Shown: piece after piece, positions 1 to 63,221 of the stretch
How positions within the stretch are numbered: position 1 is the stretch's first letter
Layout: each line of letters begins with the position of its first letter
Source of the DNA: an uncultured Blautia sp.
Lineage (GTDB): Bacteria > Bacillota > Clostridia > Lachnospirales > Lachnospiraceae
DNA length: 64,000 nt
Assembly: GCA_964439395.1 (NCBI GenBank)
Contig: CAYTNV010000014.1
Coordinates: forward strand, 3,980 to 67,979
Direction: 5' to 3'
Notes under the pieces: model-generated
Databases searched by the model: none
Seen by the model: only the letters and a program-made list of their open reading frames with translations
What the model was told of the DNA's origin: nothing
Made by a program: the position numbers and the translations under genes

Positions 1-10
1 AACAAATCAA

Positions 11-2794
11 TTGAGCACACATATCTGTATGGGAATTTTGGCTCACGTAGATGCGGGAAAAACGACTCTCGCCGAGAGTATTTTATATAGAAGTGGAGAG
101 ATTAGAAAACTTGGAAGAGTTGACCATCAGAATGCGTTTTTGGACACATATCAGTTGGAGAGAGAAAGAGGGATTACTATTTTTTCCAAGCAGGCTGAGG
201 TGAAAATTGGGGAGAAGAAGATGACACTTCTTGATACTCCAGGACATGTCGATTTCTCTGCGGAGATGGAGAGAACTCTGATGGTGCTTGACTATGCCAT
301 CTTAGTTATTAGTGGCGCAGACGGCGTGCAGGGGCATGTCGAGACATTGTGGAAACTTCTCAAGCAGTATGAAATTCCAGTTTTTCTTTTTATTAATAAG
401 ATGGATCAAGAAGGAACGGATAGAGAAGCCTTATTGAGCGAGTTGAAGGAGAAATTAGATGAAAATTGTGTCTTATTTGGCTCTGAGGAAGACGAATTTT
501 ATGAAAATATTTCTGTATGTGGAGAGGAAGATTTATTGGAGCAGTACTTAGATACTGGTAAAATTGAGAAAAGTCAGATTGTGAAAATGATTGCGAAAAG
601 AGAGATTTTCCCTTGTTTTTTTGGTTCCGCCTTGAAATTAATCGGTGTGGATGAATTTTTAGAGGGTCTAGAAGACTATACATTGGCTAGAAAATATCCA
701 GAAGAGTTTGGAGCTAAAATATATAAAATATCCAGAGATGAAAAAGGTACAAGACTTACGCATATGAAGATTACAGGAGGAAGCTTAAAGGCAAAAATGC
801 TCCTAAAAGGTGAAGAGAAGGAAAAAACGGAAAATATGGAGTGGGAAGAAAAAGCAGATCAGCTCCGCATTTACTCAGGCTCTAACTTTATACAGGCAAA
901 GGAAGTAAAAGCGGGAGAAATTTGTGCTGTCACAGGTCTCACAAAGACCTATTCAGGAGAGGGAATCGGGATTGAGAAGGCGGCGAGAAAGCCGACTTTA
1001 GATCCAGTTCTCACGTACCGCATTACTTTACCTGATGGCTGTGACGTACATCATACTTTTTTAAAGCTTCGCCAGCTTGAGGAGGAGGAGCCTCAGATGC
1101 ATATTGTTTGGCAGGAAGAGACAAATGAGATTCATGCACAGATTATGGGTGAGGTGCAAATTGAGGTGATGCAGAGTCTTATTTTGGATCGTTTTGGTAT
1201 TGAAGTGAGATTTGATTCCGGAAGTATTGTGTATAAAGAGACGATCGAAAATAGAGTGGAGGGAGTTGGACATTTTGAGCCACTTCGCCATTATGCGGAG
1301 GTACATCTTTTGATGGAGCCGCTGCCAGCGGGAACTGGTCTTATTTTTGGAACAGATTGCAGTGAAGATTTATTAGATAAAAACTGGCAAAGACTTATTT
1401 TAACACATTTATTAGAAAAGAAACATCTGGGAGTGCTGACGGGATCTGAGATTACTGATATGAAAATTACGCTCGTGTCGGGAAGGGCACATCAAAAGCA
1501 TACAGAGGGCGGAGATTTTAGACAGGCAACGTATCGTGCAGTGAGGCAGGGACTTAAGAGTGCAAACAGCGTTTTGCTAGAGCCAGTTTATCGATTCCGT
1601 CTTGAGGTTCCATCCGAAAATGTTGGCCGAGCGATGAATGATATTCAGAAAATGAAGGGAGAATTTTCCCAGCCAGAACTACAAGGGGAAATGTCAATTA
1701 TTACAGGAACGGCGCCAGTTGTCTTAATGCAAGATTATCAAAGAGAAGTTATCTCTTATACGAGAGGGCGCGGAAAAATTTTTTGCAGTCTAGATGGATA
1801 TGAACCTTGTCATAATGCCGAGGAGGTAATTGTACAAAGAGCTTATGATTCTGAGTTAGATATGAATAATCCAACAGGTTCTGTTTTTTGTGCGCATGGA
1901 GCTGGATTTGTTGTTCCTTGGGATGAGGTTCCAAATTATATGCATCTTGAGAGTGTGCTAAAGGAAGAGAAAGAGGAAAATGAGGAACTTACAGTTCTCT
2001 CCTATGAGGAACCAAAAAGAACAAATATTTCGAGATATCAGATGGACAAAGAGTTAGAGGAAATTTTTAATAAAACGTATGCAGGGACGAAAAAAGGTAC
2101 TGAGAAGCAAAATAGGAATATGTGGAGAAGACAAAAGAATACAGACTCTGTCGTGAATAAAGTATCCTCGTCTAGAGCATGGGAAGATATAGGAGAGAGA
2201 ACGTCAAAAAATAGAAGTTTCGATTATAAAAAAACAGATAGGAAAGATATGCAAAAGCGAGAAGAATATTTGCTTGTAGATGGATATAATATTATTTTTG
2301 CGTGGGAGGATTTATCAGACCTTGCGAGAAGCGACCTTGCAGCAGCGAGAGGAAAGTTGATGGACATTTTATCTAATTATCAAGGTTGGAAGCAGATGAA
2401 GCTTATTCTTGTATTTGATGCCTATAAAGTGGAGGAAAATATTGGATCTGTGAGTAAGTATCATAATATTTATGTTGTATATACTAAGGAAGCAGAGACT
2501 GCAGATCAGTATATTGAGAAGACAGTGCATGAAATTGGAAAGAAATATCAGGTTACAGTTGCCACCTCAGATGCTTTAGAGCAGATGATTATTATGGGAG
2601 CAGGTGCAACAAGACTCTCGGCAAGAAATTTGCGAGAAGAGATAGAAAATGCTAATATTGAGATTCGAGCGGAGCTTTCAGAAAATAGAAAAGAAAAAGG
2701 AAATACGAATTATTTATTCGAGGGAGTGTCGAGAGATTTAGCAGAATTGATCGAGGATATTCGATTACAGAGAGAGAAAGTTGTGAAAAAATAA
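11..2794 (+). CDS. Translational GTPase (EF-G/Tet(M)-like) fused to a C-terminal YacP/Rae1-type NYN domain
   Basis: Uninterrupted 927-codon ORF (TTG at 11, alternative ATG at 29). GTPase motifs: G1 AHVDAGKT, G2 RGITI, G3 DTPGH, G4 NKMD, followed by an EF-G-like body. A K/E/R-rich linker follows. The C-terminus reads LLVDGYN...LVFDAYK...VATSD, as I recall for B. subtilis YacP/Rae1. Confidence 0.85.
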   Translation: MSTHICMGILAHVDAGKTTLAESILYRSGEIRKLGRVDHQNAFLDTYQLERERGITIFSKQAEVKIGEKKMTLLDTPGHVDFSAEMERTLMVLDYAILVISGADGVQGHVETLWKLLKQYEIPVFLFINKMDQEGTDREALLSELKEKLDENCVLFGSEEDEFYENISVCGEEDLLEQYLDTGKIEKSQIVKMIAKREIFPCFFGSALKLIGVDEFLEGLEDYTLARKYPEEFGAKIYKISRDEKGTRLTHMKITGGSLKAKMLLKGEEKEKTENMEWEEKADQLRIYSGSNFIQAKEVKAGEICAVTGLTKTYSGEGIGIEKAARKPTLDPVLTYRITLPDGCDVHHTFLKLRQLEEEEPQMHIVWQEETNEIHAQIMGEVQIEVMQSLILDRFGIEVRFDSGSIVYKETIENRVEGVGHFEPLRHYAEVHLLMEPLPAGTGLIFGTDCSEDLLDKNWQRLILTHLLEKKHLGVLTGSEITDMKITLVSGRAHQKHTEGGDFRQATYRAVRQGLKSANSVLLEPVYRFRLEVPSENVGRAMNDIQKMKGEFSQPELQGEMSIITGTAPVVLMQDYQREVISYTRGRGKIFCSLDGYEPCHNAEEVIVQRAYDSELDMNNPTGSVFCAHGAGFVVPWDEVPNYMHLESVLKEEKEENEELTVLSYEEPKRTNISRYQMDKELEEIFNKTYAGTKKGTEKQNRNMWRRQKNTDSVVNKVSSSRAWEDIGERTSKNRSFDYKKTDRKDMQKREEYLLVDGYNIIFAWEDLSDLARSDLAAARGKLMDILSNYQGWKQMKLILVFDAYKVEENIGSVSKYHNIYVVYTKEAETADQYIEKTVHEIGKKYQVTVATSDALEQMIIMGAGATRLSARNLREEIENANIEIRAELSENRKEKGNTNYLFEGVSRDLAELIEDIRLQREKVVKK

Positions 2795-3068: not shown

Positions 3069-3101
3069 AGTAAAACGCAAGAGATGAAGGAGGAATTGAC
3101 T

Positions 3102-3440
3102 ATGTTAGAATGTTTAAAATGTGTAAAAGATGTAGTAGATAAGAAAAATACAGGAATTTTTGCAGCTGGTTTATTAGTGGGAACAGCTGGTTTAAAATTA
3201 CTAAAGAGCCAAGATGCTAAAAATGTATACACAAACTGTACAGCAGCAGTTTTACGTGTGAAAGATTGCGTAATGAATGTTGTGACAAATGTACAGGCAG
3301 AGGCAGAAGATATTTATGCAGCGGCTCAGGAAATTAACGAAGAGAGAGCAGCAAAGGCAGCTGAGAAGGAGGAAGCCGAGATTATTGATGAAATTATCGA
3401 GGAAGTGGAAGAGGCTGTTGAGGAAACTGTAGAAGAGTAA
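3102..3440 (+). CDS. Small single-helix protein with a poly-acidic C-terminal tail (DUF6110-like by recollection)
   Basis: ORF 3084-3440. The internal ATG at 3102 has GGAGG 8 nt upstream. Hydrophobic segment GIFAAGLLVGTAGLKLL, then an E/A-rich tail. Sits directly upstream of a P-type ATPase. Confidence 0.65.
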   Translation: MLECLKCVKDVVDKKNTGIFAAGLLVGTAGLKLLKSQDAKNVYTNCTAAVLRVKDCVMNVVTNVQAEAEDIYAAAQEINEERAAKAAEKEEAEIIDEIIEEVEEAVEETVEE

Positions 3441-3503
3441 ATTTCCAAAAAGCTTCGATATTATACGAGAAGAGCGACACGGAGTCATTTAAAACGAAGA
3501 ATA

Positions 3504-3548
3504 AAACGGAGCTTACACATAATTATGTGAGAGGGTTCCGTTTTTCTT
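3504..3548 (+). terminator. Imperfect hairpin plus U-run between the small protein gene and the ATPase gene
   Basis: AAACGGA...TCCGTTT outer stem with a CACAT/ATGTG inner stem, followed by TTTTTCTTAT. Confidence 0.45.
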
Positions 3549-3573
3549 ATGACAAAAGGAAAGAGAGAAAATC

Positions 3574-5661
3574 ATGAAGTTTATCATTAAGCATGAAATA
3601 AAAAATCGTATGCGTGTGCGTCCAGTGCAGGGCAAAATGACAAACGAGCAAGCTGATATTTTACAGTATTATATAAGTAATCTGCCGTCTGTAGAGATGG
3701 TAAAAGTAAATGAGAGATCCAAGGATGTTGTAATTCGCTATACGGGAGAGAGAGAACAGCTGATTGACGCACTTAGAAAATTTAGCTATGAGAAAGCAAA
3801 GGAGGATGTTCCTAAAAATTTTTTGCAAAACTCGGGCAGAGAGTTAAACGCAAAGTATTGGGAAAAGTTAGTAAATCAGGTTGTAAAAAGAGCTGGAGCG
3901 AATATATTTCTGCCAGTGCAGCTAAGAGCCGCACTTACCTTCGTGAAATCATGGAAATATATGAAAAACGGAGTAAAGACTCTAGCGCAAAGAAAGATTG
4001 AGGTTCCAGTGTTGGATGCCACAGCCATCGGTGTATCAATACTGCGAGAAGATTATACAACGGCAAGCTCTATTATGTTCTTGCTTGGAATTGGAGAAAC
4101 ATTAGAAGAATGGACACATAAGAAATCTGTCGATGATTTAGCTAGAAGTATGTCGTTAAATATCCAAAAGGTTTGGATGAAAGTAGATGGACAGGAAGTT
4201 TTAGTACCTGCGACAGAAGTAAAACAGGGAGATGAGGTTGTCGTTCATGTGAGCAATATTATTCCATTTGATGGAGAGATTGTGGAGGGTGAGGCGATGA
4301 TTAATCAGGCATCTCTCACAGGGGAATCCATTCCAGTTAGAAAGACAGTTGGGAATTATGTTTACGCTGGAACAGTTATCGATGAGGGTGAGATTACTCT
4401 CAGCGTAAAACAAACTTCAGATGGAAGCAGATTTGAGAAAATTGTGACGATGATTGAGGAATCTGAAAAATTAAAGTCTTCGGTAGAGAGCAAGGCAGAG
4501 CATTTGGCAGATAGATTAGTTCCATATTCTCTTGGAGGAACAGCACTCACTTATTTGCTAACTAGAAACGCCACGAAGGCGCTGTCCATTCTTATGGTTG
4601 ATTTTTCTTGTGCATTAAAACTTGCAATGCCAGTATCGGTATTATCTGCGATTCGCGAGGCGAGCACTTACCAGATAACAGTAAAGGGTGGCAAATATTT
4701 GGAAGCAATCTCAGAAGCAGATACGATTGTATTTGATAAAACTGGCACACTTACGAAGGCAAATCCTACTGTAGTTGATGTCATTTCTTTTGACGAAGAA
4801 AAAGATTCAGATGAGTTGCTTCGTATTGCGGCTTGTCTTGAGGAGCATTTTCCACATTCTATGGCAAAGGCAGTTGTGGATGCGGCGCTCTCCAAAAATT
4901 TAGCTCACGATGAGATGCATTCTAAGGTAGAGTATATTGTTGCTCACGGAATTTCAAGCAAGATTGATGATAAGAAAGTTCTTATCGGAAGTGCCCATTT
5001 TGTATTTGAAGATGAGCAATGTATTATTCCAGAAAGTAAGCAGGATTTATTTGATTCTCTTCCAGAAGAATATTCCCATCTTTATCTTGCAATTGACGGT
5101 AAACTAGCAGCAGTTATCTGTATTGAGGATCCTCTAAGACCAGAGGCAGCTGATGTATTAAAACAGCTTAAGGAGGCTGGTATTAGCAATATTGTTATGA
5201 TGACAGGGGATAGTGACAGAACAGCAAAAGCCATTGCAAAGAAGGTTGGTGTGGATAAGTATTTTTCGGAAGTACTTCCAGAGGATAAGGCAAATTTTGT
5301 TGCCAGGGAAAAAGATGCAGGAAGAAAAGTAATCATGATTGGCGATGGAATCAATGATTCTCCAGCCCTCTCTGCGGCGGATGTTGGAATGGCAATTAGC
5401 GACGGTGCGGAAATCGCAAGAGAAATCGCAGATGTCATTATTGGCGCAGATAATTTATATGAGATTGTAACGATTAAAAAAATTAGTAATGCCCTTATGA
5501 AGAGAATCAATAATAATTATAGAACAATTGTTGGATTTAATGGAGCGTTAATTGCGGGTGGTGTGCTTGGATTTTTACAGCCGACGACTTCTGCACTTTT
5601 ACACAATACTTCCACTCTACTGATTGGATTAAAGAGTATGACGAATTTGATTACGGATTGA
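3574..5661 (+). CDS. Heavy-metal (P1B-type) P-type ATPase, atypical SCA transmembrane motif
   Basis: Motifs SLTGES, FDKTGTLT, MMTGD and GDGINDSPAL. The N-terminal ferredoxin-like domain has no CxxC. The TM motif reads DFSCALKLAMP instead of CPC/SPC. Confidence 0.9.
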   Translation: MKFIIKHEIKNRMRVRPVQGKMTNEQADILQYYISNLPSVEMVKVNERSKDVVIRYTGEREQLIDALRKFSYEKAKEDVPKNFLQNSGRELNAKYWEKLVNQVVKRAGANIFLPVQLRAALTFVKSWKYMKNGVKTLAQRKIEVPVLDATAIGVSILREDYTTASSIMFLLGIGETLEEWTHKKSVDDLARSMSLNIQKVWMKVDGQEVLVPATEVKQGDEVVVHVSNIIPFDGEIVEGEAMINQASLTGESIPVRKTVGNYVYAGTVIDEGEITLSVKQTSDGSRFEKIVTMIEESEKLKSSVESKAEHLADRLVPYSLGGTALTYLLTRNATKALSILMVDFSCALKLAMPVSVLSAIREASTYQITVKGGKYLEAISEADTIVFDKTGTLTKANPTVVDVISFDEEKDSDELLRIAACLEEHFPHSMAKAVVDAALSKNLAHDEMHSKVEYIVAHGISSKIDDKKVLIGSAHFVFEDEQCIIPESKQDLFDSLPEEYSHLYLAIDGKLAAVICIEDPLRPEAADVLKQLKEAGISNIVMMTGDSDRTAKAIAKKVGVDKYFSEVLPEDKANFVAREKDAGRKVIMIGDGINDSPALSAADVGMAISDGAEIAREIADVIIGADNLYEIVTIKKISNALMKRINNNYRTIVGFNGALIAGGVLGFLQPTTSALLHNTSTLLIGLKSMTNLITD

Positions 5662-5780
5662 TTTTATTAAAATGAATGAAGGAAGTCCTCTGTCTCATGC
5701 TGATGCATTGAAGGGAGCGACTTCCTTTAGTTGTTTATATCATTATTATAAATTCTTTTTAGACTAGTGATTGAAAGGAT

Positions 5781-6941
5781 TTAATACCAGCGGTTGAAAG
5801 GAAGTTCGTTATTAATATCATTGGTAAATAGAATTTGGTGTAAATCAATAATTCCATTCATAAATGTTGCCGCGCAGGAACATAAATATAATTCCCACAT
5901 GCGGGCAAATTTTTCATCGAATATTTCAATTACTTTCGCTCGATGCTTTTGGAAATTTTCATTCCAAAGAAGAAGCGTTTTATTATAATGTCTGCGAAGA
6001 CTTTCTATATCAATTGTATAAAAACGCATATCACCAGCAATTTGCATTATTTCACGTAGACTTGGAACGACACCACCTGGAAAGATATATTTTTTTACCC
6101 ATGCATCTCCTGGATATTCTCTGAGAGAGCTAATATAGTGAAGAAGGAAAAGCCCTCCTGGCTTTAATGATTTTTTTACACAAGATAGAAATTCTTCGTA
6201 GTTTCCTCGTCCTACATGTTCAAGCATTCCGACGCTGACGATGCGGTCAAATTGTTGATTTAATTTTGGTAAATCTCGATAATCCAATAGTTCAACTCTA
6301 AGATAATCTTCAAGATGCTCCTCGTGAATACGTTCTTCAAATTTCTTCTTTTGTTCTTTACTTAATGTAATGCCTATACCGTGAATCTGATATTTTTTAG
6401 CTGCCTGTATTAGGAGAAAACCCCATCCACAGCCTATATCACATAGGCTCATTCCCTCTTGAAGATAGAGCTTTTTCAAAATACGGTCAACCTTATTATA
6501 CTGCGCCTCATACAGTGAGTCAGAAGTTTTTTCAAAATAGCCACAAGAATAACTAAGTGTCTCATCAAGCCAAAGCTTATAAAAATCATTTCCAATATCA
6601 TAATGGGAAGAAACCTCTTTCTTTTGATTTCTCTTTGTTTTGGATGAAAAAATTAGACTTTTTAGCTTCTTTTCATTTGTTGAAAATTTTTCCATTTGCC
6701 CTAAAAACATATTTAGTGCATGGTATAAATCTCCCTCAATTTCAATATCACCATTCATATATGCTTCTCCTAATGCGATTGACGTACTAGTTAATAGCTC
6801 GGATATATGGGGAGTTTTATGAAATATTACGGTAAAGGTTGGCACCCCATGACCAATTTTATAATCTTTACCATCCAGCTTCATAATAAATGGGCTGGCA
6901 TCAAAAGTTTCCATAAATTTAATGAATTCTTTTTTTAACAT
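5781..6941 (-). CDS. cfa: Cyclopropane-fatty-acyl-phospholipid synthase family SAM methyltransferase
   Basis: SAM motif DIGCGWG and Cfa-like length and order. Start moved to the ATG at 6941 (MLKKEF...), which has GGAGG 8 nt upstream. The ORF-track start at 6971 lacks an RBS. Confidence 0.9.
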   Translation of the reverse strand: MLKKEFIKFMETFDASPFIMKLDGKDYKIGHGVPTFTVIFHKTPHISELLTSTSIALGEAYMNGDIEIEGDLYHALNMFLGQMEKFSTNEKKLKSLIFSSKTKRNQKKEVSSHYDIGNDFYKLWLDETLSYSCGYFEKTSDSLYEAQYNKVDRILKKLYLQEGMSLCDIGCGWGFLLIQAAKKYQIHGIGITLSKEQKKKFEERIHEEHLEDYLRVELLDYRDLPKLNQQFDRIVSVGMLEHVGRGNYEEFLSCVKKSLKPGGLFLLHYISSLREYPGDAWVKKYIFPGGVVPSLREIMQIAGDMRFYTIDIESLRRHYNKTLLLWNENFQKHRAKVIEIFDEKFARMWELYLCSCAATFMNGIIDLHQILFTNDINNELPFNRWY

Positions 6942-6968
6942 TGTGATAAATCCTCCTATCTGCATTTG

Positions 6969-7000
6969 CAAAAAAAATACATACCAAACAGATGGTATGT
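6969..7000 (-). terminator. Intrinsic terminator inside the cfa leader (attenuator candidate)
   Basis: On the minus strand ACATACCA-tctgtt-TGGTATGT (8-bp stem) is followed by ATTTTTTTTG. It lies about 28 nt upstream of the cfa start. Confidence 0.6.
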
Positions 7001-7034
7001 ACTAATGAAAGAAAGACGATACATACGATTGCTT

Positions 7035-7087
7035 GATATGTTGTATCGTATCGGAGTATCCTCATAATGGATATCTTGTATCGTATC
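7035..7087. repeat. Two 18-nt direct repeats GATAT(G/C)TTGTATCGTATC, 35-nt period, in the cfa leader
   Basis: Copies at 7035-7052 and 7070-7087 differ at one base. An inverted partial copy (GATACATACGAT) lies at about 7017-7028. Confidence 0.8.
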
Positions 7088-7106
7088 ACAAATGGTTTAC
7101 TTTTGT

Positions 7107-7136
7107 ATTTTAGCATTATAATTGACTCATTGTCAA
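7107..7136 (-). promoter_or_regulatory. Candidate sigmaA promoter for cfa
   Basis: Minus strand: TTGACA (7136-7131), 18-nt spacer, TAAAAT (7112-7107). Confidence 0.5.
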
Positions 7137-7392
7137 ATAGTTTTATGTTTTTTCGTTGAGATAATAAATAATCAAATTTATATTTCAAAGAGAGTGGAAT
7201 AATATATTTACTATTCGAAATAGCTAGAGAATAATATGATAAAGAAAAGAAGTCACCTGGAAATAATAGACATTTTCTTTTGAGTATAAACAAATAGTAT
7301 TTTCTGGATATAAAATAGGAAAAGATATATGGGCATAAGGAAAAGAAATTTTCCATAATATTATGATGAAGATAGAATGTAGAGGGAAAAGT

Positions 7393-7860
7393 ATGGAACA
7401 GATAAAATGGAAAGAGTTATTATTTAGTCTGTTTATAAGTGTTGGAAGTGGAATGTTGTCATGGATTTTGGCAGGAGATAGCATGAAAAAATATGAAGTT
7501 CTGCCAAAGCCTCCGCTCTCTCCACCTGGATGGGTATTTCCAGTTGTCTGGACAATTCTTTTTATTCTTATGGGTTATGCGGCGTACTTAGTGTATAATA
7601 CCGAAAGTGCAGAAAAAGGGAAGGCATTGATTTTATATGGAATCCAGTTAATTGTCAATATCGGTTGGTCTATTATTTTCTTTCGGTTTGAATTATATTT
7701 TTTTGCGTTTGTATGGCTTATATTTTTATGGTATCTTATTATACTATTGATACAGGAGTTTGGAAAGTTACAAAAAAGGGCGGGAGTTTTATTGTATCCC
7801 TATCTTTTTTGGGTGACATTTGCGGGATATTTAAATTTGGCAATTGTATTAATGAAATAG
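7393..7860 (+). CDS. tspO: TspO/MBR tryptophan-rich sensory protein
   Basis: Five hydrophobic Trp-rich segments (PPGWVFPVVWTILF..., NIGWSIIFF). The ATG at 7393 has GAGGG 6 nt upstream. Confidence 0.85.
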   Translation: MEQIKWKELLFSLFISVGSGMLSWILAGDSMKKYEVLPKPPLSPPGWVFPVVWTILFILMGYAAYLVYNTESAEKGKALILYGIQLIVNIGWSIIFFRFELYFFAFVWLIFLWYLIILLIQEFGKLQKRAGVLLYPYLFWVTFAGYLNLAIVLMK

Positions 7861-7888
7861 GAAAAAGGAGTCAGCATAATAATGAAAA

Positions 7889-7917
7889 GACAAGAAGAGA
7901 AATGATAGTTTCTTGTC
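7889..7917 (-). terminator. Hairpin downstream of the PH-domain gene
   Basis: GACAAGAA/TTCTTGTC 8-bp stem. A U-run (TTTTCATT) follows only on the minus strand. Confidence 0.45.
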
Positions 7918-7946
7918 GGAAAATTATTATGCTTGACTCCTATTTT

Positions 7947-8324
7947 TTATTTTAGAATATATTCTCCGATTGCCACACAAAGCTCAGCGACATTACTGCT
8001 TCCGCTAAGTTCAAAGCAAACCATACCGATAGAGTTAATATATAAATGTAAATGTGCATCGAGGTCTAAAACTCCAGCTGTCTCTATAGAAAATGTCTGA
8101 ATACAGGAATATGGGATAAAGCTAAAATCCTTTTTCTTTCCTGTAATTCCTTCCACATTTACAGCTATAATTCGTTTGTTTGTGAAAATAAGGTGATCTC
8201 TAATACTTACATAGCTGTCGATAACTTCTTCTCCAGGTACCATATAAGGACTAATTAATTTTTCACCTTTGGATAAATCTTCTGCTACTAATTTAAAAAG
8301 TTTTTTATTTTCAAAATCAATCAT
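7947..8324 (-). CDS. Bacterial PH-domain (YokE-like) protein
   Basis: 125 aa with the pattern ...DHLIFTNKRIIAV....KKKDFSFIPYSCIQTFSIETAG, typical of bacterial PH domains as I recall them. GGGAG RBS. Confidence 0.65.
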   Translation of the reverse strand: MIDFENKKLFKLVAEDLSKGEKLISPYMVPGEEVIDSYVSIRDHLIFTNKRIIAVNVEGITGKKKDFSFIPYSCIQTFSIETAGVLDLDAHLHLYINSIGMVCFELSGSSNVAELCVAIGEYILK

Positions 8325-8635
8325 GTGAAAACTCCCTTCTCAAATAAAAAATGAATTGCTTTCTGAAAAAATCGTAATGATATTTCTATTATATAAATGA
8401 AGATGAATATCGTCAATAATGAAAATTTACTCTTTATTACGCTAATAAAGCATATTGTTTTTATGTCCTTGTTAAGTGGATAATAAGAGGCAAAGATGGT
8501 TGTATAGTACATTTGCAAAGAGCAAATAGGGTATTTATATAAACGATAGTGAAGGAGAAAATACCTTATTCGCTCTTTATCGTGTCTATTATTTCATTTA
8601 TTTCAAAAATATTTTAAAATTTATGATTATAACTT

Positions 8636-9250
8636 TTAATCCTCCCATGGACGAATACGATATGTTACCCCTAAATCATCACAAATTTTTTGACATTGCT
8701 GTTCTTCTTCAGCAGTAATTGTAGTAGAGACTGTAGATAATACAACATTTGGTACATATTTTTTTGCCTCTTTTGCGAATGCAAGCATTGCATCAAAAGA
8801 TTGCTCACCAAATTTGCTGCGGACGATTTTATGATACTCCTCGGCGTTTGGAGTGTTTAAACTAATAGAAATAGTATCGATAAGTCCCTCAAGCTCAGGT
8901 GTGATATCTCTTCCGTTTACGAGATTTCCAAGACCATTTGTGTTGATACGGGTTGGATTTTTGAAGTTTTCTTTTATATATTTAGCAACTTGTATAAGAA
9001 CAGGGAAAGCTTCTGTTGGCTCGCCAAATCCACAAAATACAATTTCTTTGTACTGGCTCATATCAAATTTTTTAAATTCTTCCACTATTTCCTCAAAACT
9101 AGGTTCATGTTCGAGCCAGAGTACACCAGAATCATCCATATGGTCTCTTGTCTGTCTAAGACAGAATGTACAGGCACATGGACATTTATTTGTTAAATTG
9201 ACATATAGATTATTATGGACTTTATATAAAAGTGTTTGCATTTTTTTCAT
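8636..9250 (-). CDS. Small radical SAM protein (TatD-associated type by recollection)
   Basis: CPCACTFC contains CX3CX2C. About 200 aa. The FCGFGEP motif is present. Confidence 0.8.
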   Translation of the reverse strand: MKKMQTLLYKVHNNLYVNLTNKCPCACTFCLRQTRDHMDDSGVLWLEHEPSFEEIVEEFKKFDMSQYKEIVFCGFGEPTEAFPVLIQVAKYIKENFKNPTRINTNGLGNLVNGRDITPELEGLIDTISISLNTPNAEEYHKIVRSKFGEQSFDAMLAFAKEAKKYVPNVVLSTVSTTITAEEEQQCQKICDDLGVTYRIRPWED

Positions 9251-9283
9251 TTTTCAGTTTTCCTTTCTATCATTTAGTTTTAT

Positions 9284-10117
9284 TTATTTTAATTTTCCTA
9301 AAACTTCTTCAAAACATACTCCGTCTGTTAATGGAATGTCAAGCTCAGTTGATTTTAAAATACATTTCTTTATGAAATTAGAAGCTTTTTTCACAGACTT
9401 GTCAAATGGAACTCCATTTACTGCATCTGCAGCGATAATAGAAGAAAAAATATCTCCTGTGCCAGAACGCTGCGTTCCAACCTTATGCGTGCGAAGAATT
9501 TTTTCTTTTTTTCCTTCCTCATAGCAGTAGTTAGCGATAAAGCTTTGCTGTACAATACCTGTGACTACAATCTTTTTTGGACCTTTTTTGGCTAGACTTT
9601 TTGCCATCTTTCTAATATCAGCAATTTTCCATTTTTCTTTATATGGCGTATCAGTAAGAATACAAAGCTCTGTCAAATTTGGTGTGATAATATCTGCGTA
9701 CTTGACAAGTTGCTTCATCTCCTGACACATTTCCTCTGTATAAGTGGAATAAGGTTTGCCGTAATCTCCCATGACAGGGTCTACGATAATTAAGGTTTCC
9801 TTTGTCTTAAATTCCTTGAAAAAATTTTCCACAATCTTAATCTGCTTTTTAGATCCCAAAAATCCTGTGCAAATTCCGTGAAAACGTAAATCTAATTTTT
9901 TCCATTCTTCTATATAGGGATTCATTTTATCTGTATAGTCGTCAAAAAAGAAGCTAGAAAATCCAGTATGATTCGATAAAATCGAAGTTGGCACTGGACA
10001 GCACTGCACTTTTAAGACAGAAATAATTGGAAGTGCCACTGCTAGGGAGCAGCGACCAAACCCTGTAAAATCATTGATGACGGCAATTTTTTTCTGATGA
10101 TTATGTGCTGTTACCAT
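9284..10117 (-). CDS. pdxK: Pyridoxal/pyridoxamine kinase
   Basis: Ribokinase-fold PdxK pattern, with the C-terminal GTGDIFSS anion-hole motif. Confidence 0.85.
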   Translation of the reverse strand: MVTAHNHQKKIAVINDFTGFGRCSLAVALPIISVLKVQCCPVPTSILSNHTGFSSFFFDDYTDKMNPYIEEWKKLDLRFHGICTGFLGSKKQIKIVENFFKEFKTKETLIIVDPVMGDYGKPYSTYTEEMCQEMKQLVKYADIITPNLTELCILTDTPYKEKWKIADIRKMAKSLAKKGPKKIVVTGIVQQSFIANYCYEEGKKEKILRTHKVGTQRSGTGDIFSSIIAADAVNGVPFDKSVKKASNFIKKCILKSTELDIPLTDGVCFEEVLGKLK

Positions 10118-30612: not shown

Positions 30613-30919
30613 GCTTTTAGAAATAAAAACTTAGCTAGTTTTGCTGATAATATGGATGAAATATAAGAGACTATATGCTGTTTTTACTATATATTTTTGA
30701 ATTTAACAGAAGAAAAATATAGAAATGCATAAAGAAAAAAAGGATAAGAAAAAAGAAATCTTGATAAATGGCATAAACGTCATTTTCCGAGAAAATAAAA
30801 TATTAGACAGATTTCAAAAAAAGTTTTGCATTTTCTGACAAATGCGGTATAATGTGACTGAATACCAGATGACTAAAAGGTAAAGGTTAAATCGTAAAAG
30901 ACAGATTATGGAGGAATTT

Positions 30920-33900
30920 ATGAGTCAGGTAAAAAGAGTTTATGTAGAAAAGAAGGCAGACTATGCGGTAAAAGCAAAAGAGCTGTTGGCAGAAATTAAA
31001 GCATATCTTTCTATAGAAAAGATTGATAATGTGAGACAGTTGATTCGCTATGATATAGAAAATGTATCCGAGGATACTTATAATATGGCAAAAGATACTG
31101 TATTTAGCGAGCCGCCAGTCGATCATTTGTATGAAGAAGAATTTCCTTTAAACGAAAAAGAAACTGTATTTAGCGTAGAGTTTTTGCCAGGCCAGTTCGA
31201 CCAAAGAGCAGACTCTGCTGAGCAATGTTTAAAACTTTTAAACGAAAAGGAAGATCCAACAATTCGCTCCGCTGTTACGTATGTATTAGAGGGTGATTTG
31301 AGTGAAGAAGAAATAGAGAAAATTAAATCCTATTGTATTAATCCAGTGGATTCTAGACAGTCTGAAGAAAATAAGCCAGATACCTTGCTTACTGATTTTG
31401 AAGAGCCAGAGGATGTAGCTATTTTTGATGGGTTTTCTAAGATGCCAGAGGAAGAATTAAAGAAATTATATGATTCTTTAGGACTTGCTATGACATTTAA
31501 AGATTTCCTGCATATTCAAAATTATTTTAACAAGGAAGAAGAGCGTGATCCATCCATGACAGAGATTCGTGTATTGGATACGTATTGGTCAGATCATTGT
31601 AGACATACTACTTTTTCCACAGAACTTAAAAATATTGAGTTTGGAGAGGGATATTATAAGGAGATATTAGAAAGTACTTATAAAGAGTATTTAGCAGATA
31701 GAGAAGAACTTTATAAAGGAAGAAAAGATAAATTCGTATGTCTTATGGACTTAGCTCTTATCGCCATGAAAAAAATCAAAGCGGATGGCGGCTTAGAAGA
31801 TATGGAAGAGTCTGATGAGATTAACGCATGTAGCATTGTTGTTCCAGTTACAATCGACGGACAGACAGAGGAATGGTTAATTAGCTTTAAAAATGAGACA
31901 CATAACCATCCAACAGAGATTGAGCCTTTTGGTGGGGCAGCTACTTGCCTTGGTGGAGCAATCCGCGACCCACTCTCGGGACGTTCTTATGTATATCAGG
32001 CTATGCGTGTCACAGGTGCAGCAGACCCAACGCTTCCGCTCGACTGGACATTAAATGGAAAGCTCCCACAGAGAAAATTAACGACGGGTGCGGCAGATGG
32101 TTATAGTTCTTATGGTAACCAGATTGGTTTGGCTACAGGTATGGTAGATGAGGTTTATCATCCAAACTACGTGGCAAAGCGTTTAGAGATTGGTGCCGTT
32201 ATGGGTGCAGCTCCAAGAAAAAATGTTGTTCGTGAGACGTCTGATCCAGGGGATATTATTATTTTATTAGGTGGAAGAACAGGTAGAGATGGTTGTGGTG
32301 GAGCCACAGGTTCCTCTAAAGTACACACAGAACAATCGATTGAGACATGTGGTGCTGAGGTACAAAAAGGTAATCCGCCTACAGAGAGAAAAATTCAGAG
32401 ATTATTTAGACGAGAGGAAGTAAGCCGCTTAATTAAAAAGTGTAATGATTTTGGTGCAGGTGGAGTTTCCGTTGCAATCGGAGAACTTGCGGATGGTTTA
32501 CAAATTCAGCTTGATAAAGTTCCTAAAAAATATGCAGGTCTTGACGGGACAGAGCTCGCTATTTCTGAGTCTCAAGAGCGTATGGCAGTTGTCGTTGATC
32601 CTAAGGATGTAGATACTTTCCTTGCCTATGCGAAAGAAGAGAATTTGGAGGCAGTAGAAGTTGCCGTTGTCACAGAGGAAAAACGTCTTGTTATGTACTG
32701 GAGAGGTAAGACAATTGTAGATTTATCTCGTGCTTTTTTGGATACAAACGGTGCGCATCAAGAAACAGATGTATTCGTGACAATCCCAGAGTATAGAGAC
32801 GGATATGAAGTAAGAGATAGTGCGGCTATAAACTTAGAGGATATGTGGAAAGATTGTATGGAGGATTTAAATGTATGCTCTAAGAAAGGACTTGTGGAAA
32901 TGTTTGACAGCTCTATTGGAGCGGCTACTGTTTTGATGCCATATGGTGGTAAAAATCAGTCCACACCAATCCAGACAATGATAGCTAAGCTTCCAATTTT
33001 GAAGGGAGAGTCTGATACGGTAACGATGATGAGTTATGGATTCGACCCATATATTTCTAGTTGGAGTCCATATCATGGCGCCATTTATTCAGTTATTGAG
33101 TCTATGGCTAAAATTGTGGCAAGCGGTGGAAATTATGAGAAGATTCGCTTCACATTCCAAGAGTACTTCAAGCGTCTCGGTGAGGATAAAGAACGTTGGG
33201 GTGAGCCATTTGCAGCATTGCTCGGTGCTTATAGCATTCAAAAAGCATTTGGACTTCCATCCATCGGTGGAAAAGACAGTATGTCTGGTACATTCAATGA
33301 TATTGATGTTCCGCCAACTTTAGTATCTTTTGCTGTAGATATTGGAGATGCAAATCATATTATTACTCCGGAGTTGAAAAAGAAGGATAACCATCTTGTT
33401 TTAGTGAGAGTTCCTCTAGATAAGTTTAGAGTACCAGATTATAAAGTGGCAGCTATAAACTATCGTCATATTTATAAGATGGCGAGAAAAGGACAAATTG
33501 AGTCTGCATATGCTATCGGAAAAGGTGGTATCATTGGTGCCATCAGTAAGATGGCATTCGGAAACGGACTTGGTGTTCGTCTGGATGGTGATTTAAGTTT
33601 AGAGCAGTTGACTGAGAAATGCTATGGTTCTATTCTTCTTGAGGTAACTTCAAGAAATATCCGCAATATTGGACTTCCTTGTGTATATGTCGGTGAGGTT
33701 ATTGGAGAGCAGGAAATTCAATACAAAAATGAAGAATTTGACTTGGCAAAGATGGAGGAAATTTGGAATAGTCAGCTTGAATCCGTATTCCCTACAAATT
33801 CGGGAATTGAGCCTATGCAGTTGGATACGCCAGTTTATGATGCATATGGTAAGATTTATATTGCAAAGAATAAAGTCGCAGTTCCAAAGGTATTTATCCC

Positions 33901-34678
33901 TGTATTCCCAGGAACAAACTGCGAGTATGATACAGCAAAAGCATTTGAGTTAGCGGGAGCAAAGGTAGAGACAAGAGTATTTAGAAACTTGACAGAGCAA
34001 GACATTAGAGATTCTATTGAGGAGTTTGAGAAGGCAATTTCTGATGCTCAGATTATTATGTTCCCAGGTGGATTTAGTGCCGGTGATGAGCCAGAAGGTT
34101 CTGCAAAATTCTTTGCCACAGTATTTAGAAATGAAAAGATGAAGGAAGCAGTTCATAAATTATTAGATGAGAGAGACGGACTTGCACTTGGTATTTGCAA
34201 TGGATTCCAGGCACTTATTAAGCTTGGACTTTTACCTTACGGTGAGATTACAAAACAGCAGGCAGATTCTCCAACATTGACAATGAATAGCATTGGTCGT
34301 CATATTTCCAAGATGGTTCATACAAAGATTGTTTCTAATAAGTCTCCATGGCTAAAGAATGCAATTTTGAGACAAAGTTATGTAATTCCAGCATCCCATG
34401 GTGAGGGACGCTTTGTTGCAAGTAAAGAGTGGATTGAAAAATTATTTGAGAATGGACAGGTTGCGACACAGTATGTTGACTTAAATGGGCATCCTACGAT
34501 GGATGAGAGATTTAATCCAAATGGTTCTTATGCGGCAATCGAGGGAATTACAAGTCCAGATGGAAGAATTTTAGGTAAGATGGCTCATTCTGAGCGTATT
34601 GGATTAAATGTAGCCAAAAATATTCCTGGAAATCAAAATCAGCATATTTTTGAAGCAGGAGTAGAGTACTTTAAATAG
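30920..34678 (+). CDS. purL: Phosphoribosylformylglycinamidine synthase, single-chain large form
   Basis: About 1250 aa with FGAM synthetase N, AIR-synthase-like repeats and a C-terminal glutaminase (GICNGFQ). The ATG at 30920 has GGAGG 7 nt upstream. Confidence 0.95.
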   Translation: MSQVKRVYVEKKADYAVKAKELLAEIKAYLSIEKIDNVRQLIRYDIENVSEDTYNMAKDTVFSEPPVDHLYEEEFPLNEKETVFSVEFLPGQFDQRADSAEQCLKLLNEKEDPTIRSAVTYVLEGDLSEEEIEKIKSYCINPVDSRQSEENKPDTLLTDFEEPEDVAIFDGFSKMPEEELKKLYDSLGLAMTFKDFLHIQNYFNKEEERDPSMTEIRVLDTYWSDHCRHTTFSTELKNIEFGEGYYKEILESTYKEYLADREELYKGRKDKFVCLMDLALIAMKKIKADGGLEDMEESDEINACSIVVPVTIDGQTEEWLISFKNETHNHPTEIEPFGGAATCLGGAIRDPLSGRSYVYQAMRVTGAADPTLPLDWTLNGKLPQRKLTTGAADGYSSYGNQIGLATGMVDEVYHPNYVAKRLEIGAVMGAAPRKNVVRETSDPGDIIILLGGRTGRDGCGGATGSSKVHTEQSIETCGAEVQKGNPPTERKIQRLFRREEVSRLIKKCNDFGAGGVSVAIGELADGLQIQLDKVPKKYAGLDGTELAISESQERMAVVVDPKDVDTFLAYAKEENLEAVEVAVVTEEKRLVMYWRGKTIVDLSRAFLDTNGAHQETDVFVTIPEYRDGYEVRDSAAINLEDMWKDCMEDLNVCSKKGLVEMFDSSIGAATVLMPYGGKNQSTPIQTMIAKLPILKGESDTVTMMSYGFDPYISSWSPYHGAIYSVIESMAKIVASGGNYEKIRFTFQEYFKRLGEDKERWGEPFAALLGAYSIQKAFGLPSIGGKDSMSGTFNDIDVPPTLVSFAVDIGDANHIITPELKKKDNHLVLVRVPLDKFRVPDYKVAAINYRHIYKMARKGQIESAYAIGKGGIIGAISKMAFGNGLGVRLDGDLSLEQLTEKCYGSILLEVTSRNIRNIGLPCVYVGEVIGEQEIQYKNEEFDLAKMEEIWNSQLESVFPTNSGIEPMQLDTPVYDAYGKIYIAKNKVAVPKVFIPVFPGTNCEYDTAKAFELAGAKVETRVFRNLTEQDIRDSIEEFEKAISDAQIIMFPGGFSAGDEPEGSAKFFATVFRNEKMKEAVHKLLDERDGLALGICNGFQALIKLGLLPYGEITKQQADSPTLTMNSIGRHISKMVHTKIVSNKSPWLKNAILRQSYVIPASHGEGRFVASKEWIEKLFENGQVATQYVDLNGHPTMDERFNPNGSYAAIEGITSPDGRILGKMAHSERIGLNVAKNIPGNQNQHIFEAGVEYFK

Positions 34679-56367: not shown

Positions 56368-57035
56368 CTCGGTATGATAAACTTTTTGTCTATTTTATAG
56401 TAGACGAAACATTATTATCATAGCTGAGTATATCACGCTCAGAAAATGATGTCTAGTGAAAAAACGAAGAAAAATACAAGAAAGTACCGAGAATAGTCTA
56501 AGATTGTGCAAAGATATTGTTTTATAGTGCAGGCTATTTATTTGTAGAAATAAAGATATTTTGGAGGTATATTTTTATTAAGAAGATTGGCAGTCAGAAT
56601 ATGCCAATTCGATAGAAAATAAAAGAGTGGTAATTTTTTTGATTTTATGCTTGATGGAAATTTTCATAGTAAATACTAATAAAAATTAAAAAAATAAAGT
56701 TTGGATTATGTAGAATGTTTAAATTTTTTAAAAAATGAAATTTTTTTATTTACAAACTGCAAAACATGTAGTATGATAGTGCAAGAGCAATCGAAGAGAA
56801 AAAAATAAGAGAGGATTGTTTCTGTATTTTTACAATTATAATGGGCGTTTTACAATATTATTTAAAAGAAAAAATGAGAAAAAATGCTCATAGATAGAAA
56901 AAAGCTAAGTAAAGCAGATTAGAATAGTGAAACTGTATTCAGTATTTATTGCAAATATATGGGTTTTCTGATGAGAGGTTTATCATATTGGAAAGCCAAC
57001 TACTCTGCTTGTCTGGATTTTTATACTTTAAAGAG

Positions 57036-57171
57036 CATACCGCATCCTATGCCCTACGAGCAAAGGAAACAGCTTTGCTGTTTTATAAGGTATACCCACA
57101 GGGCACACCGTATTTTATGCCCTACGGGCAAAGAAAACAGCTTTGCTGTTTTATAAGGTATAATAAAGGAA
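57036..57171 (+). repeat. 2 x 68-nt tandem direct repeat, each unit carrying a 7-N7-7 palindrome, upstream of gltB
   Basis: Core TATGCCCTACG(A/G)GCAAAG(G/A)AAACAGCTTTGCTGTTTTATAAGGTATA at 57048-57094 and 57116-57162 (45/47 identical). Palindrome AGCAAAG-N7-CTTTGCT followed by GTTTTAT. Confidence 0.85.
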
Positions 57172-57188
57172 GAGAGAAAGGTGATGGA

Positions 57189-61724: not shown

Positions 61725-61736
61725 GAGGAGAAGAAG

Positions 61737-63221
61737 ATGGGAAAGCCAACTGGTTTTTTAGATTATGAGAGAAAAAACAATAAGGCAGTCGAGCCGAAAG
61801 ATAGAATCAAACATTTTAATGAATTCCACACTCCGCTATCTGCAAAAGAAAGACAGATACAGGGAGCAAGATGTATGGATTGTGGTGTGCCATTTTGTCA
61901 ATCTGGTATGTTAATTGGCGGTATGGCATCTGGATGTCCATTAAATAACTTAATTCCAGAGTGGAATGATGCGATTTATCACGGAAACTGGACAGAAGCG
62001 TATAAGAGATTAAAAAAGACAAATCCTTTTCCAGAATTTACAGGAAGAGTTTGTCCAAATCCTTGTGAGGTGGCATGTACTTGTGGATTAAACGGTCCTG
62101 CTATCTCAATTAAGGAAAATGAGTACAGTGTGATTGAGTACGCTTATTCTCACGGTTTAGTAAAGGCGAAGCCACCAGAAATTAGAACAGGAAAGAAGGT
62201 AGCCGTTATCGGCTCTGGACCTTCTGGACTTTCCGCAGCGCAGGCATTGAATAGAAGAGGACATTTTGTGACAGTGTATGAACGCTCTGATAGAATCGGT
62301 GGACTTTTAATGTACGGTATTCCAAATATGAAATTAGAAAAGCATATCATTGATAGACGTGTAAATATAATGAAGGAAGAAGGCATTGAATTTATTACAA
62401 ATACAAATGTCGGAGTTGACATAAAGGCGAGTGAATTATTGAAGAAATACGATAGTATTGTCTTGGCTTGTGGTGCTTCTAATCCTAGAGATTTGAAGGT
62501 AAAAGGAAGAAAGTCAAACGGAATTTATTTTGCAGTTGATTTCTTAAAAGCTACCACAAAGAGTTTATTAGATTCTGGCTTAAAAGATAACCAGTATATT
62601 AGCGCAAAAGGTAAAAATGTATTGGTTATCGGTGGTGGTGATACAGGAAATGACTGTGTCGGAACTTCGATTCGTCACGGTGCCAAGAGCGTCACTCAGC
62701 TTGAGATGATGCCAAAACTTCCAGATGAGAGAGCGGACAATAATCCATGGCCACAGTGGCCAAGAGTGTGCAAGACAGACTATGGTCAAGAAGAATCCAT
62801 CGCAGTGTTTGGAAAAGATCCTCGTGTCTACCAGACTACAGTAAAAGAGTTTATTGCCAATGATAAGGGAGATGTGTGCAAGGCAAAATTAGTAAAGCTT
62901 GAGTCACAAAAAGATCCAAAGACAGGGCGTATGAATATGGTAGAGGTTGCAGGTAGTGAGTATGAAATTCCAGTTGATCTAGTATTGATTGCAGCAGGAT
63001 TTTTAGGTAGTCAGTCTTATGTGACAAATGCATTTGGTGTAGAAGTCAATGAGCGCACAAATGTAAAGACAGCAGCAGGTGCTTATAAGACAAATGTGCC
63101 TAAAGTATTCGTGGCAGGAGATATGCATAGAGGACAGTCTTTAGTTGTATGGGCAATCCGCGAGGGAAAGGAAGCTGCGAGAGAAGTGGATCTTTCTATG
63201 ATGGGATATACAAACTTATAA
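61737..63221 (+). CDS. gltD: Glutamate synthase small subunit (NADPH)
   Basis: Fe-S cysteines CMDCGVPFC and GRVCPNPCEVAC, and Rossmann motifs GSGPSGLSAA and GGGDTGNDC. Confidence 0.95.
   Translation: MGKPTGFLDYERKNNKAVEPKDRIKHFNEFHTPLSAKERQIQGARCMDCGVPFCQSGMLIGGMASGCPLNNLIPEWNDAIYHGNWTEAYKRLKKTNPFPEFTGRVCPNPCEVACTCGLNGPAISIKENEYSVIEYAYSHGLVKAKPPEIRTGKKVAVIGSGPSGLSAAQALNRRGHFVTVYERSDRIGGLLMYGIPNMKLEKHIIDRRVNIMKEEGIEFITNTNVGVDIKASELLKKYDSIVLACGASNPRDLKVKGRKSNGIYFAVDFLKATTKSLLDSGLKDNQYISAKGKNVLVIGGGDTGNDCVGTSIRHGAKSVTQLEMMPKLPDERADNNPWPQWPRVCKTDYGQEESIAVFGKDPRVYQTTVKEFIANDKGDVCKAKLVKLESQKDPKTGRMNMVEVAGSEYEIPVDLVLIAAGFLGSQSYVTNAFGVEVNERTNVKTAAGAYKTNVPKVFVAGDMHRGQSLVVWAIREGKEAAREVDLSMMGYTNL

Follow-up and report, generated by a model that had tools for sequence, protein, structure and literature searches.

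A translational GTPase joined to a Rae1-type endoribonuclease in Blautia and other gut Clostridia

Why would a bacterium place a translational GTPase and an endoribonuclease on one polypeptide? The question is raised by a gene at the left edge of a 64,000-nucleotide stretch of DNA from an uncultured Blautia sp. (contig CAYTNV010000014.1, forward-strand positions 3,980 to 67,979; hereafter, the window), in which a single open reading frame (ORF) joins an EF-G-like GTPase, a linker, and a nuclease domain of the YacP/Rae1 type. It is essentially certain that this is a chromosomal gene encoding a member of an already catalogued family of Tet-like GTPase/Rae1 fusions, and the protein is a new species-level member of this known, experimentally uncharacterized family.

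Fusions of Tet-like GTPases with NYN_YacP domains in Clostridia were described by Atkinson 2015 (BMC Genomics 16:78, PMC4342817), with the GTPase filed under 'Tet' and a variant antibiotic-resistance mechanism suggested. Additional file 8 of that paper lists ten complete genomes of nine species, namely, R. albus, E. eligens, E. rectale, B. proteoclasticus, C. cellulolyticum, C. lentocellum, L. phytofermentans, C. thermocellum, and D. hafniense (two strains), whereas the paper's own count is ten species. Matelska et al. 2017 (NAR 45:6995, PMC5499597) noted a 'TetM-like'/NYN_YacP fusion in some Clostridia and called its role unclear; the two recent Rae1 papers do not mention the fusion. The initial annotation of this DNA, made from the sequence alone, knew of no characterized example of such an architecture. 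We found none either, but the architecture itself had been published in both 2015 and 2017.

The fused gene and its family

The fusion is common in gut Clostridia. In a collection of 5.8 billion proteins, all of the best 120 clusters (120/120; 62–95% identical) combine EF-G-type domains with PF05991, and they include sequences from isolates, for example, Blautia stercoris and Blautia marasmi, along with many metagenomes. We fetched 137 full-length fused homologs, originating from independent isolates and metagenomes, and the frame is kept across the linker in every one of them. The fusion is found in the finished genomes of E. rectale ATCC 33656 and C. thermocellum ATCC 27405 and is distributed widely, being present in nine named species from several clostridial families. 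Because the homologs keep the frame and finished genomes carry the fusion, it is not an assembly artifact. The suspicion that a sequencing or assembly error joined two neighboring genes is nourished by the linker, which is A-rich, of low complexity, and, accordingly, error-prone, and by the broken versions that occur in public assemblies; but with the window frame open throughout and with all of the best 120 clusters, the full-length homologs, and the finished genomes showing the fused form, we give this explanation practically no credence.

Separate genes for the two halves would have constituted split-gene (Rosetta-stone) evidence, and close stand-alone NYN proteins encoded beside a GTPase gene do appear in the databases. 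Every case that we inspected, however, was rejected. One candidate (L005, 3774–6525) comes from an error-rich assembly; two pairs (L006/L007, with the break at L006 5700–6000, and L096/L097, at L096 3900–4000) reflect homopolymer-A frameshifts, with the ELEEIF motif of the linker lying in the NYN frame; and two more (L094, 3900–4000, and L095, 2200–2400) coincide with scaffold N-gaps. Fragments of fused genes, broken at scaffold N-gaps or at frameshifts in the A-runs of the linker, account for many of the public entries called 'NYN domain-containing protein', 'partial' or 'elongation factor G, partial'; some of the A-run frameshifts may conceivably be biological, through phase variation or programmed slippage.

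In the initial annotation, the gene was given as an ORF of 927 codons joining three parts. The frame and the parts are as described, but the start, probably, is not. According to the ORF list, the 927-amino-acid product begins with the TTG codon at nucleotide 11; the ORF, however, is open back to nucleotide 2 (nucleotides 2–10 read TNQ in frame, with no stop), and a homolog with 95% identity (P0001) has the N-terminus MGKFSGNREETNQLSTHICMGIL, with 10 more N-terminal residues than the window ORF. Because the frame remains open up to the edge and this homolog starts further upstream, the TTG start is an edge effect. Judging from the homolog, the gene probably begins some 10 codons outside the window, beyond its left edge, and the promoter and the ribosome-binding site would, therefore, lie outside the window as well.

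The GTPase, the linker, and the nuclease

The first approximately 650 residues had been taken for a translational GTPase with AHVDAGKT, RGITI, DTPGH, and NKMD motifs; all four motifs are in place, and Pfam agrees (Table 1). The G1–G5 motifs and the catalytic histidine of DTPGH are invariant in the alignment of the fusion family and, with domains II–V following in the EF-G order, place the protein in the EF-G/EF2 family of the translational GTPase superfamily. A full-length AlphaFold2 (AF2) model based on a 29-sequence alignment reached a predicted local distance difference test score (pLDDT) of 54; when redone with 120 sequences, including unfused orthologs and NYN fragments, the model had a mean pLDDT of 74.9 and a confident five-domain body. 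In Foldseek searches, this body matched EF-G with E 6e-52 (~690 columns) and Tet(M) in its ribosome-bound form with E 1e-43.

The best full-length sequence matches are Tet proteins (E 9e-78 for PDB Tet(M), in one end-to-end stretch), and the earlier description of the GTPase as 'Tet(M)-like' is adequate at the level of the fold and the superfamily. At the family level, it fails. Compared with the NCBIfam models of Tet protection proteins (NF012153/NF033148), the protein scores 429.7 bits against tet_protect, with a cut-off of 775, and 301.7 bits against tet_protect_M_W (TetM/W/O/S), with a cut-off of 1100; nor does it reach the EF-G equivalog TIGR00484 (288 bits vs a cut-off of 659.4). When domain IV is scored alone, EF-G comes out marginally ahead of Tet(O) and Tet(M). 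In its loop III, AHQKHTEGGDF is aligned with YYSPVSTPADF of Tet(M), and the YSPVS motif is missing; in the Tet(M)/Tet(O) cryo-EM structures, the YSPVS-type loop III of domain IV is the one that reaches the tetracycline site and dislodges the drug. Loop I differs from its Tet(M) counterpart, too, and is 4 residues shorter than that of EF-G, and H494 aligns with a conserved EF-G histidine (His573 in T. thermophilus). With near-invariant domain IV tip motifs of its own, the GTPase appears, on sequence grounds, to belong to a distinct subfamily and not to the Tet proteins.

The GTPase body ends in a conserved extension of ~50 amino acids (family pattern PCHN...NPTGSVFCAHGAGFxVPW...YMH; AF2 pLDDT ~67–87); neither this extension nor the linker matches any Pfam family. 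C600/H601 and C627/H629 (window 1808–1900, residues 600–629) are invariant among close relatives, and a divergent homolog (P0176) keeps both cysteines of the extension and has lost the histidines. These residues could be a candidate metal or redox site.

The same GTPase occurs without the nuclease. Lactobacillaceae encode proteins of 640–665 amino acids that have the same loop I motif and the C-terminal extension and end there; the genes reside on the megaplasmid of L. salivarius and, in genera such as Companilactobacillus, Levilactobacillus, Paucilactobacillus, and Pediococcus, on the chromosome. These orthologs are 50–55% identical to the GTPase part of the window protein, carry inconsistent database names ('elongation factor G', 'GTP-binding protein', 'TetM...'), and, in a rough neighbor-joining tree in which Tet(M) is a distant outgroup, are placed among the fused sequences of Clostridia. 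Because they share the motifs and the extension, the GTPase subfamily has a life of its own, so the nuclease would be an addition or, in Lactobacillaceae, a loss. In L. salivarius pMP118 (L003, 5396–7914), the unfused gene divergently adjoins a paralog of rpsN (S14) and a gene for a 'putative metal homeostasis protein', and a Levilactobacillus ortholog (L091, 5001–8309) adjoins the gene for the RsgA GTPase; these neighbors possibly hint at ribosome or zinc biology, in an arrangement that is not conserved across the examined loci.

The linker, described earlier as K/E/R-rich, of low complexity, and ~100 residues long, is so by composition (15% E, 14% K, 10% R) and by predicted disorder. Among the 137 homologs, it ranges from 69 to 189 amino acids (median 87), and conservation along it is near zero except for one short helix motif in which E681, L682, I685, F686, and Y690 are invariant; an ELEEIF-like pattern is recognizable in 126 of the 137. 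Charge is distributed with a polarity around this motif in the same set: the segment before it (~33 amino acids) is acidic, with a median net charge of -3, and the segment after it (~44 amino acids), directly before the nuclease, is basic, with a median of +6. Judged by its sequence, the linker resembles a flexible tether that has one end suited to RNA and contains a single putative docking element.

The assignment of the C-terminus to the YacP/Rae1 NYN nucleases, originally made from its acidic motifs, is fully supported. The NYN_YacP profile (PF05991) matches with 172 bits, compared to a gathering cut-off of 24.6 bits, over positions 1–164 of 166, that is, nearly the whole domain; the motifs LLVDGYN (residues 754–760), VFDAYK (801–806), and VATSD (850–854) are all present; and the YacP/Rae1 structures 5mq8/5mq9 in PDB match with E 2.5e-24. 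In the alignment with B. subtilis Rae1, which shows 36% identity and extends from the first strand through the C-terminal helices, D757, D803, D832, and D854 correspond to D7, D53, D81, and D104. These catalytic aspartates are invariant in 29 of 29 fused homologs, and the catalytic residues are intact in the nuclease as they are in the GTPase. The D7N D81N double substitution is the published catalytic mutant of Rae1, with its activity abolished (PMC10351889).

The NYN domain is ~50% identical to a stand-alone clostridial Rae1 (Anaerotignum P0404), the gene of which lies in the classical cysS-mrnC-rlmB-yacP-sigH operon. A scan of genome contigs with this Anaerotignum protein yielded 80 related, Anaerotignaceae-like loci, all of them (80/80) with the same operon context and with no Tet-like GTPase nearby. 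The canonical setting is absent here: the 64-kb window contains no cysS, mrnC, rlmB, or sigH and no second NYN gene or translational GTPase, and the domain is the C-terminus of a 927-amino-acid protein. Because residues, fold, and identity match canonical Rae1 whereas the context differs, the fused domain is predicted to be a bona fide Rae1-type nuclease in a non-canonical setting. In a separate record, that of Pusillibacter faecalis pMM59_01 (L098, 4459–6608), mrnC (Mini-RNase III) is directly followed by an NFACT/RqcH-type gene, which places a gene for rRNA processing beside one for ribosome quality control, and there is no yacP.

Table 1. Features of the fused gene and other annotated loci in the window (nucleotide positions count from the first letter of the window; residues, from the TTG of the visible ORF)
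Feature	Nucleotides	Residues	Strand	Basis or remark
Whole ORF as visible in the window	11..2794		+	927 codons and stop; 5' end probably cut by the window edge
G domain, GTP_EFTU (Pfam)	17..679	3-223	+	E 1.6e-51
G1, AHVDAGKT	41-64	11-18	+	motif present
G2, RGITI	167-181	53-57	+	motif present
G3, DTPGH, including catalytic His79	233-247	75-79	+	motif present
G4, NKMD	395-406	129-132	+	motif present
G5, GSAL	623-634		+	motif present
Domains II and III together	710..1213		+	AF2 strands, Pfam EFG_III
Domain II, beta barrel		~234-320	+	AF2 strands; homologs carry PF22042 EF-G_D2
Domain III		332-401	+	Pfam EFG_III, E 4e-07
Domain IV	1223..1567	405-519	+	Pfam EFG_IV, E 7.5e-17
Domain IV tip loop EGVGHFEPLRHYAEVH		417-432	+	family-specific, near-invariant
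Domain IV tip loop GRAHQKHTEGGDFRQA		491-506	+	family-specific, near-invariant; family pattern GRAHxKHTEGGDFRQA
Domain V	1571..1816	521-602	+	Pfam EFG_C, E 9.8e-20
Conserved C-terminal extension of the GTPase body	1817..1960	~603-650	+	...PCHNAEEV...YD.E.D..NPTGSVFCAHGAGFVVPWDEVPNYMH
Disordered linker	1961..2260	~651-750	+	composition, conservation, AF2 pLDDT <50
Short helix motif KELEEIFNKTYA	2045-2080	679-690	+	family pattern (D/E)KELEEIFxRTYG
Rae1/YacP-type NYN endoribonuclease domain with C-terminal helices	2270..2761	754-917	+	Pfam NYN_YacP, E 1.3e-50
Fatty-acid synthesis (fab) cluster	within 8636-64000			inferred from synteny with metagenome-assembled contig L001
purL	30908-34678			
Glutamate synthase, large and small subunits	56949-63221			

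Proposed function and its alternatives

Rae1 acts in a translation-dependent manner, cutting at the tail of stalled ribosomes and feeding tmRNA after collisions (PMC12407103, PMC13622287). According to current reports, Rae1 cuts 12 nucleotides upstream of the codon in the A site, at the rear of ribosomes that have stalled or collided, and Rae1-dependent tmRNA tagging after ribosome collisions is described in a 2026 preprint (PMC13622287). The earlier model of Rae1 docking in the A site has been withdrawn by its own authors. It was on that model that the initial annotation rested when it placed the Rae1 cut in the A site, adjoining the dock of the GTPase; because the cut site has been revised, this argument no longer holds. 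The general idea of GTPase-guided delivery of the nuclease remains the most plausible reading, although the A-site rationale behind it is outdated. Of the three outcomes that the initial annotation listed as refuting, none was observed: the homologs preserve the frame, the profile assigns the C-terminus to NYN_YacP, and the aspartates do not vary.

In our judgment, the protein is best explained, and somewhat probably so, as a GTP-gated mRNA endonuclease that docks at the factor site and acts in ribosome rescue. The GTP form would dock at the ribosomal factor-binding site, like EF-G and Tet(M), and the family-specific tip of domain IV would probe the A-site region of the 30S subunit, reading a particular ribosome state, that is, a ribosome that is stalled with an accessible A site or is blocked in a collision. 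The nuclease, attached through a disordered linker of 70–190 amino acids, the last part of which is basic, would be kept at a high local concentration on that ribosome and would cut the mRNA at the ribosome edge, yielding a truncated message for trans-translation to clear; GTP hydrolysis would then release the factor. Ribosome binding, the state recognized, the RNA target, and the position of the cut are all features that we infer. In Gram-positive bacteria, Rae1 has just been linked to ribosome rescue after stalling and collision (a 2025 paper and a 2026 preprint), and its joining to a factor-site GTPase by evolution is a natural experiment on Rae1 recruitment.

Several points weigh against this proposal. 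Rae1 cuts at the mRNA-exit side of a stalled ribosome, but a factor bound to this ribosome occupies the entry/A-site side. For the two to be reconciled, the linker would have to loop around the ribosome, the fused nuclease would have to cut at another position, or the factor would have to sit on the trailing ribosome. A factor on the blocked trailing ribosome would face the mRNA entry side, abutting the 5' edge of the stalled ribosome where Rae1 cuts; alternatively, the disordered leash of ~90 amino acids could span the distance to the mRNA entry or exit of the ribosome on which the factor itself sits. Both arrangements are ones that we infer. Furthermore, to our knowledge, canonical Rae1 works on ribosomes without any GTPase, and the unfused Lactobacillaceae orthologs show that the GTPase has a role of its own in the absence of the nuclease. 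The fused protein may either replace or supplement canonical Rae1 in its genomes; PLSDB searches with Rae1, CysS, and Mini-III returned no usable chromosomal records of Monoglobus or Agathobacter. Finally, no functional study of any member of the fusion family was found in the literature, and the locus tags and accessions of the genomes listed in 2015 led to no papers either.

A more far-reaching proposal, possible but doubtful, is that the GTPase half represents an unnamed subfamily of translational GTPases that senses stalled or collided ribosomes, licensing cleavage by Rae1 in a GTP-dependent manner when fused and aiding stand-alone Rae1 in trans in Lactobacillaceae. The GTPase could, for example, bind the blocked trailing ribosome, with the factor site facing the inter-ribosome mRNA. 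If this were the case, bacteria would possess, in one polypeptide, a counterpart of GTPase-coupled no-go decay, and the way in which Rae1 finds its ribosomes would be explained.

The alternatives to the docked, GTP-gated endonuclease are, in descending order of plausibility, independent function of the two halves, rRNA cleavage, tetracycline resistance, phage defense, and the assembly artifact dealt with above. Under the first of these, the GTPase has its own ribosome-related function, and the fusion merely co-expresses or co-localizes an ordinary Rae1, with no GTP gating. We consider this unlikely. The unfused orthologs do share the signature motifs and the C-terminal extension; the length and variability of the disordered linker suggest that there is no fixed geometry between the halves; and the NYN domain closely resembles the canonical stand-alone clostridial enzyme, with the C-terminal helices kept. 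Nevertheless, the fusion is stably maintained across several clostridial families, every split version inspected could be traced to a gap in a scaffold, a frameshift in a homopolymer, or an assembly rich in errors, and, because the linker motif and the charge polarity are conserved, the tether itself appears to be under selection.

No more probable is the possibility that the nuclease cleaves not mRNA but rRNA or rRNA/tRNA precursors. In this case, the GTPase would survey ribosomes or intermediates late in assembly, and the NYN domain would inactivate or process the rRNA in them, with a role in the biogenesis, quality control, or decommissioning of ribosomes. The original prediction for YacP was that of an enzyme processing rRNA or tRNA, made from its position in the cysS-mrnC-rlmB-yacP operon (PMC5499597), the same operon that we observed around the stand-alone Rae1 genes. 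A factor-bound nuclease would be held near the 16S and 23S rRNA, the basic segment of the linker could bind rRNA, and some of the orthologs adjoin rsmH, rsgA, or rpsN. These neighborhoods, however, are not conserved, no data point to rRNA cleavage, and all experimentally mapped Rae1 substrates are translated mRNAs (PMC10351889, PMC12407103, PMC13622287).

The suggestion of Atkinson 2015, that is, a Tet(M)/Tet(O)-like tetracycline ribosomal-protection protein that acquired an RNase domain, is quite improbable. It draws on the whole-length matches, the best of which are to Tet proteins, and on nomenclature, given that many database entries are named as members of the TetM/TetW/TetO/TetS family and that the GTPase was classed as Tet in that study. 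Against it stand the scores far below the curated cut-offs, the replacement of loop III and the difference in loop I, the lack of any preference for Tet over EF-G when domain IV is scored alone, and the rough neighbor-joining tree, where Tet(M) is remote from the clade that unites fused and unfused sequences; in addition, the gene has a chromosomal housekeeping context, with no transposon or conjugative setting, and the family has the distribution of a core gene in Clostridia and Lactobacillaceae. Thousands of family entries from the gut microbiome are labeled 'tetracycline resistance ribosomal protection protein' or 'elongation factor G'. Because both the Tet and the EF-G cut-offs are missed and the subfamily has a distinct signature, both labels are, on the evidence here, probably wrong, and resistome counts are probably inflated.

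Still less credible, indeed very improbable, is an anti-phage or toxin-like effector that shuts off translation, the nuclease being directed at ribosomes so that infection is aborted. Nucleases that target ribosomes are known from toxin-antitoxin and defense systems, and a record labeled 'Bacteriophage sp.' contains the fused gene; however, PADLOC detected no defense system, only TIR-like noise at 15 bits, and no mobile-element, transposon, conjugative, antitoxin, or defense-island context was found at the locus. The record in question (MT835514.1, L100; 'UNVERIFIED Bacteriophage sp.'), one of the two best such matches, was rejected as a link to phages. It encodes a full-length fused protein (6913–9522; 869 amino acids, 51% identity) between rsmH and gltX, and the flanking genes are feoB, a ZIP transporter gene, rsmH, gltX, a small alarmone synthetase gene, glpK, and cls; because these are its neighbors, the record is a bacterial contig from a phage collection.

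By its surroundings, the fused gene looks like a stand-alone housekeeping-type gene and not like the cargo of a mobile element or a defense island. No gene neighborhood is conserved among six fused or unfused loci, and no tRNA genes were found in the window. The genes near the fused gene in the window encode DUF6110, a P-type ATPase, a cyclopropane-fatty-acid (CFA) synthase, TspO, and bPH. Compared to the syntenic contig of a metagenome-assembled genome (L001), the window has ~4.8 kb of extra sequence (3084–7860) between the fused gene and the bPH gene, and this insert holds the genes for DUF6110, the P-type ATPase, which has an HMA domain, CFA synthase, and TspO. A strong promoter-like site (TTGACG-17-TATAAT) is located at 2884–2912. 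The 500-nucleotide upstream region of the syntenic contig, scanned with Rfam and for promoters and terminators, yielded nothing credible. Apart from the loci in Table 1, positions 8636–64000 contain ptsI, gatA/gatB, and genes for an Ig-like surface protein and threonine synthase.

Comparison with known systems

The nearest relatives are the clostridial Tet-like/NYN_YacP fusions, from which the window protein differs in nothing essential: it shares 50% identity, over 94% of its length, with the protein of Agathobacter (Eubacterium) rectalis, a species on the Atkinson list, and 55% with a Monoglobus protein, and the proteins listed by Atkinson share GHFEPLRHYAEVH, KHTEGGDF, and the short helix motif before the NYN domain. 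The unfused Lactobacillaceae orthologs, the C-terminal extension, and the linker motif are not described in either Atkinson 2015 or Matelska 2017. B. subtilis Rae1 (5MQ8/5MQ9) has in common with the nuclease half the NYN_YacP fold, the four aspartates, and the C-terminal helices; unlike the window domain, which lies outside that operon, it is a stand-alone protein of ~170 amino acids encoded in the cysS-mrnC-rlmB-rae1-sigH operon.

Tet(M) and Tet(O) resemble the GTPase half as five-domain EF-G-like GTPases and best full-length matches, and the docking site on the ribosome is presumably the same. In contrast to these proteins, the window protein falls below the family cut-off, lacks the YSPVS motif, is not carried by mobile elements, and adds the extension of ~50 amino acids, the linker, and the nuclease. 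EF-G shares the five-domain fold, provides the top Foldseek matches, and has the G motifs and the counterpart of H494 in common with the window protein; however, with 24% identity, a score below the TIGR00484 cut-off, and the shortened loop I, the latter is not expected to be a housekeeping translocase.

Finally, a functional analogy, with no homology implied, can be drawn with E. coli SmrB and with eukaryotic Cue2/NONU-1 together with Hbs1-Dom34, where mRNA cleavage by a nuclease recruited to stalled or collided ribosomes sets off their rescue, and a translational GTPase serves as the reader of an abnormal A site. The nucleases in those systems have the SMR fold rather than NYN, and the nuclease and the GTPase are separate proteins, whereas in the clostridial family the two activities would reside on a single polypeptide.

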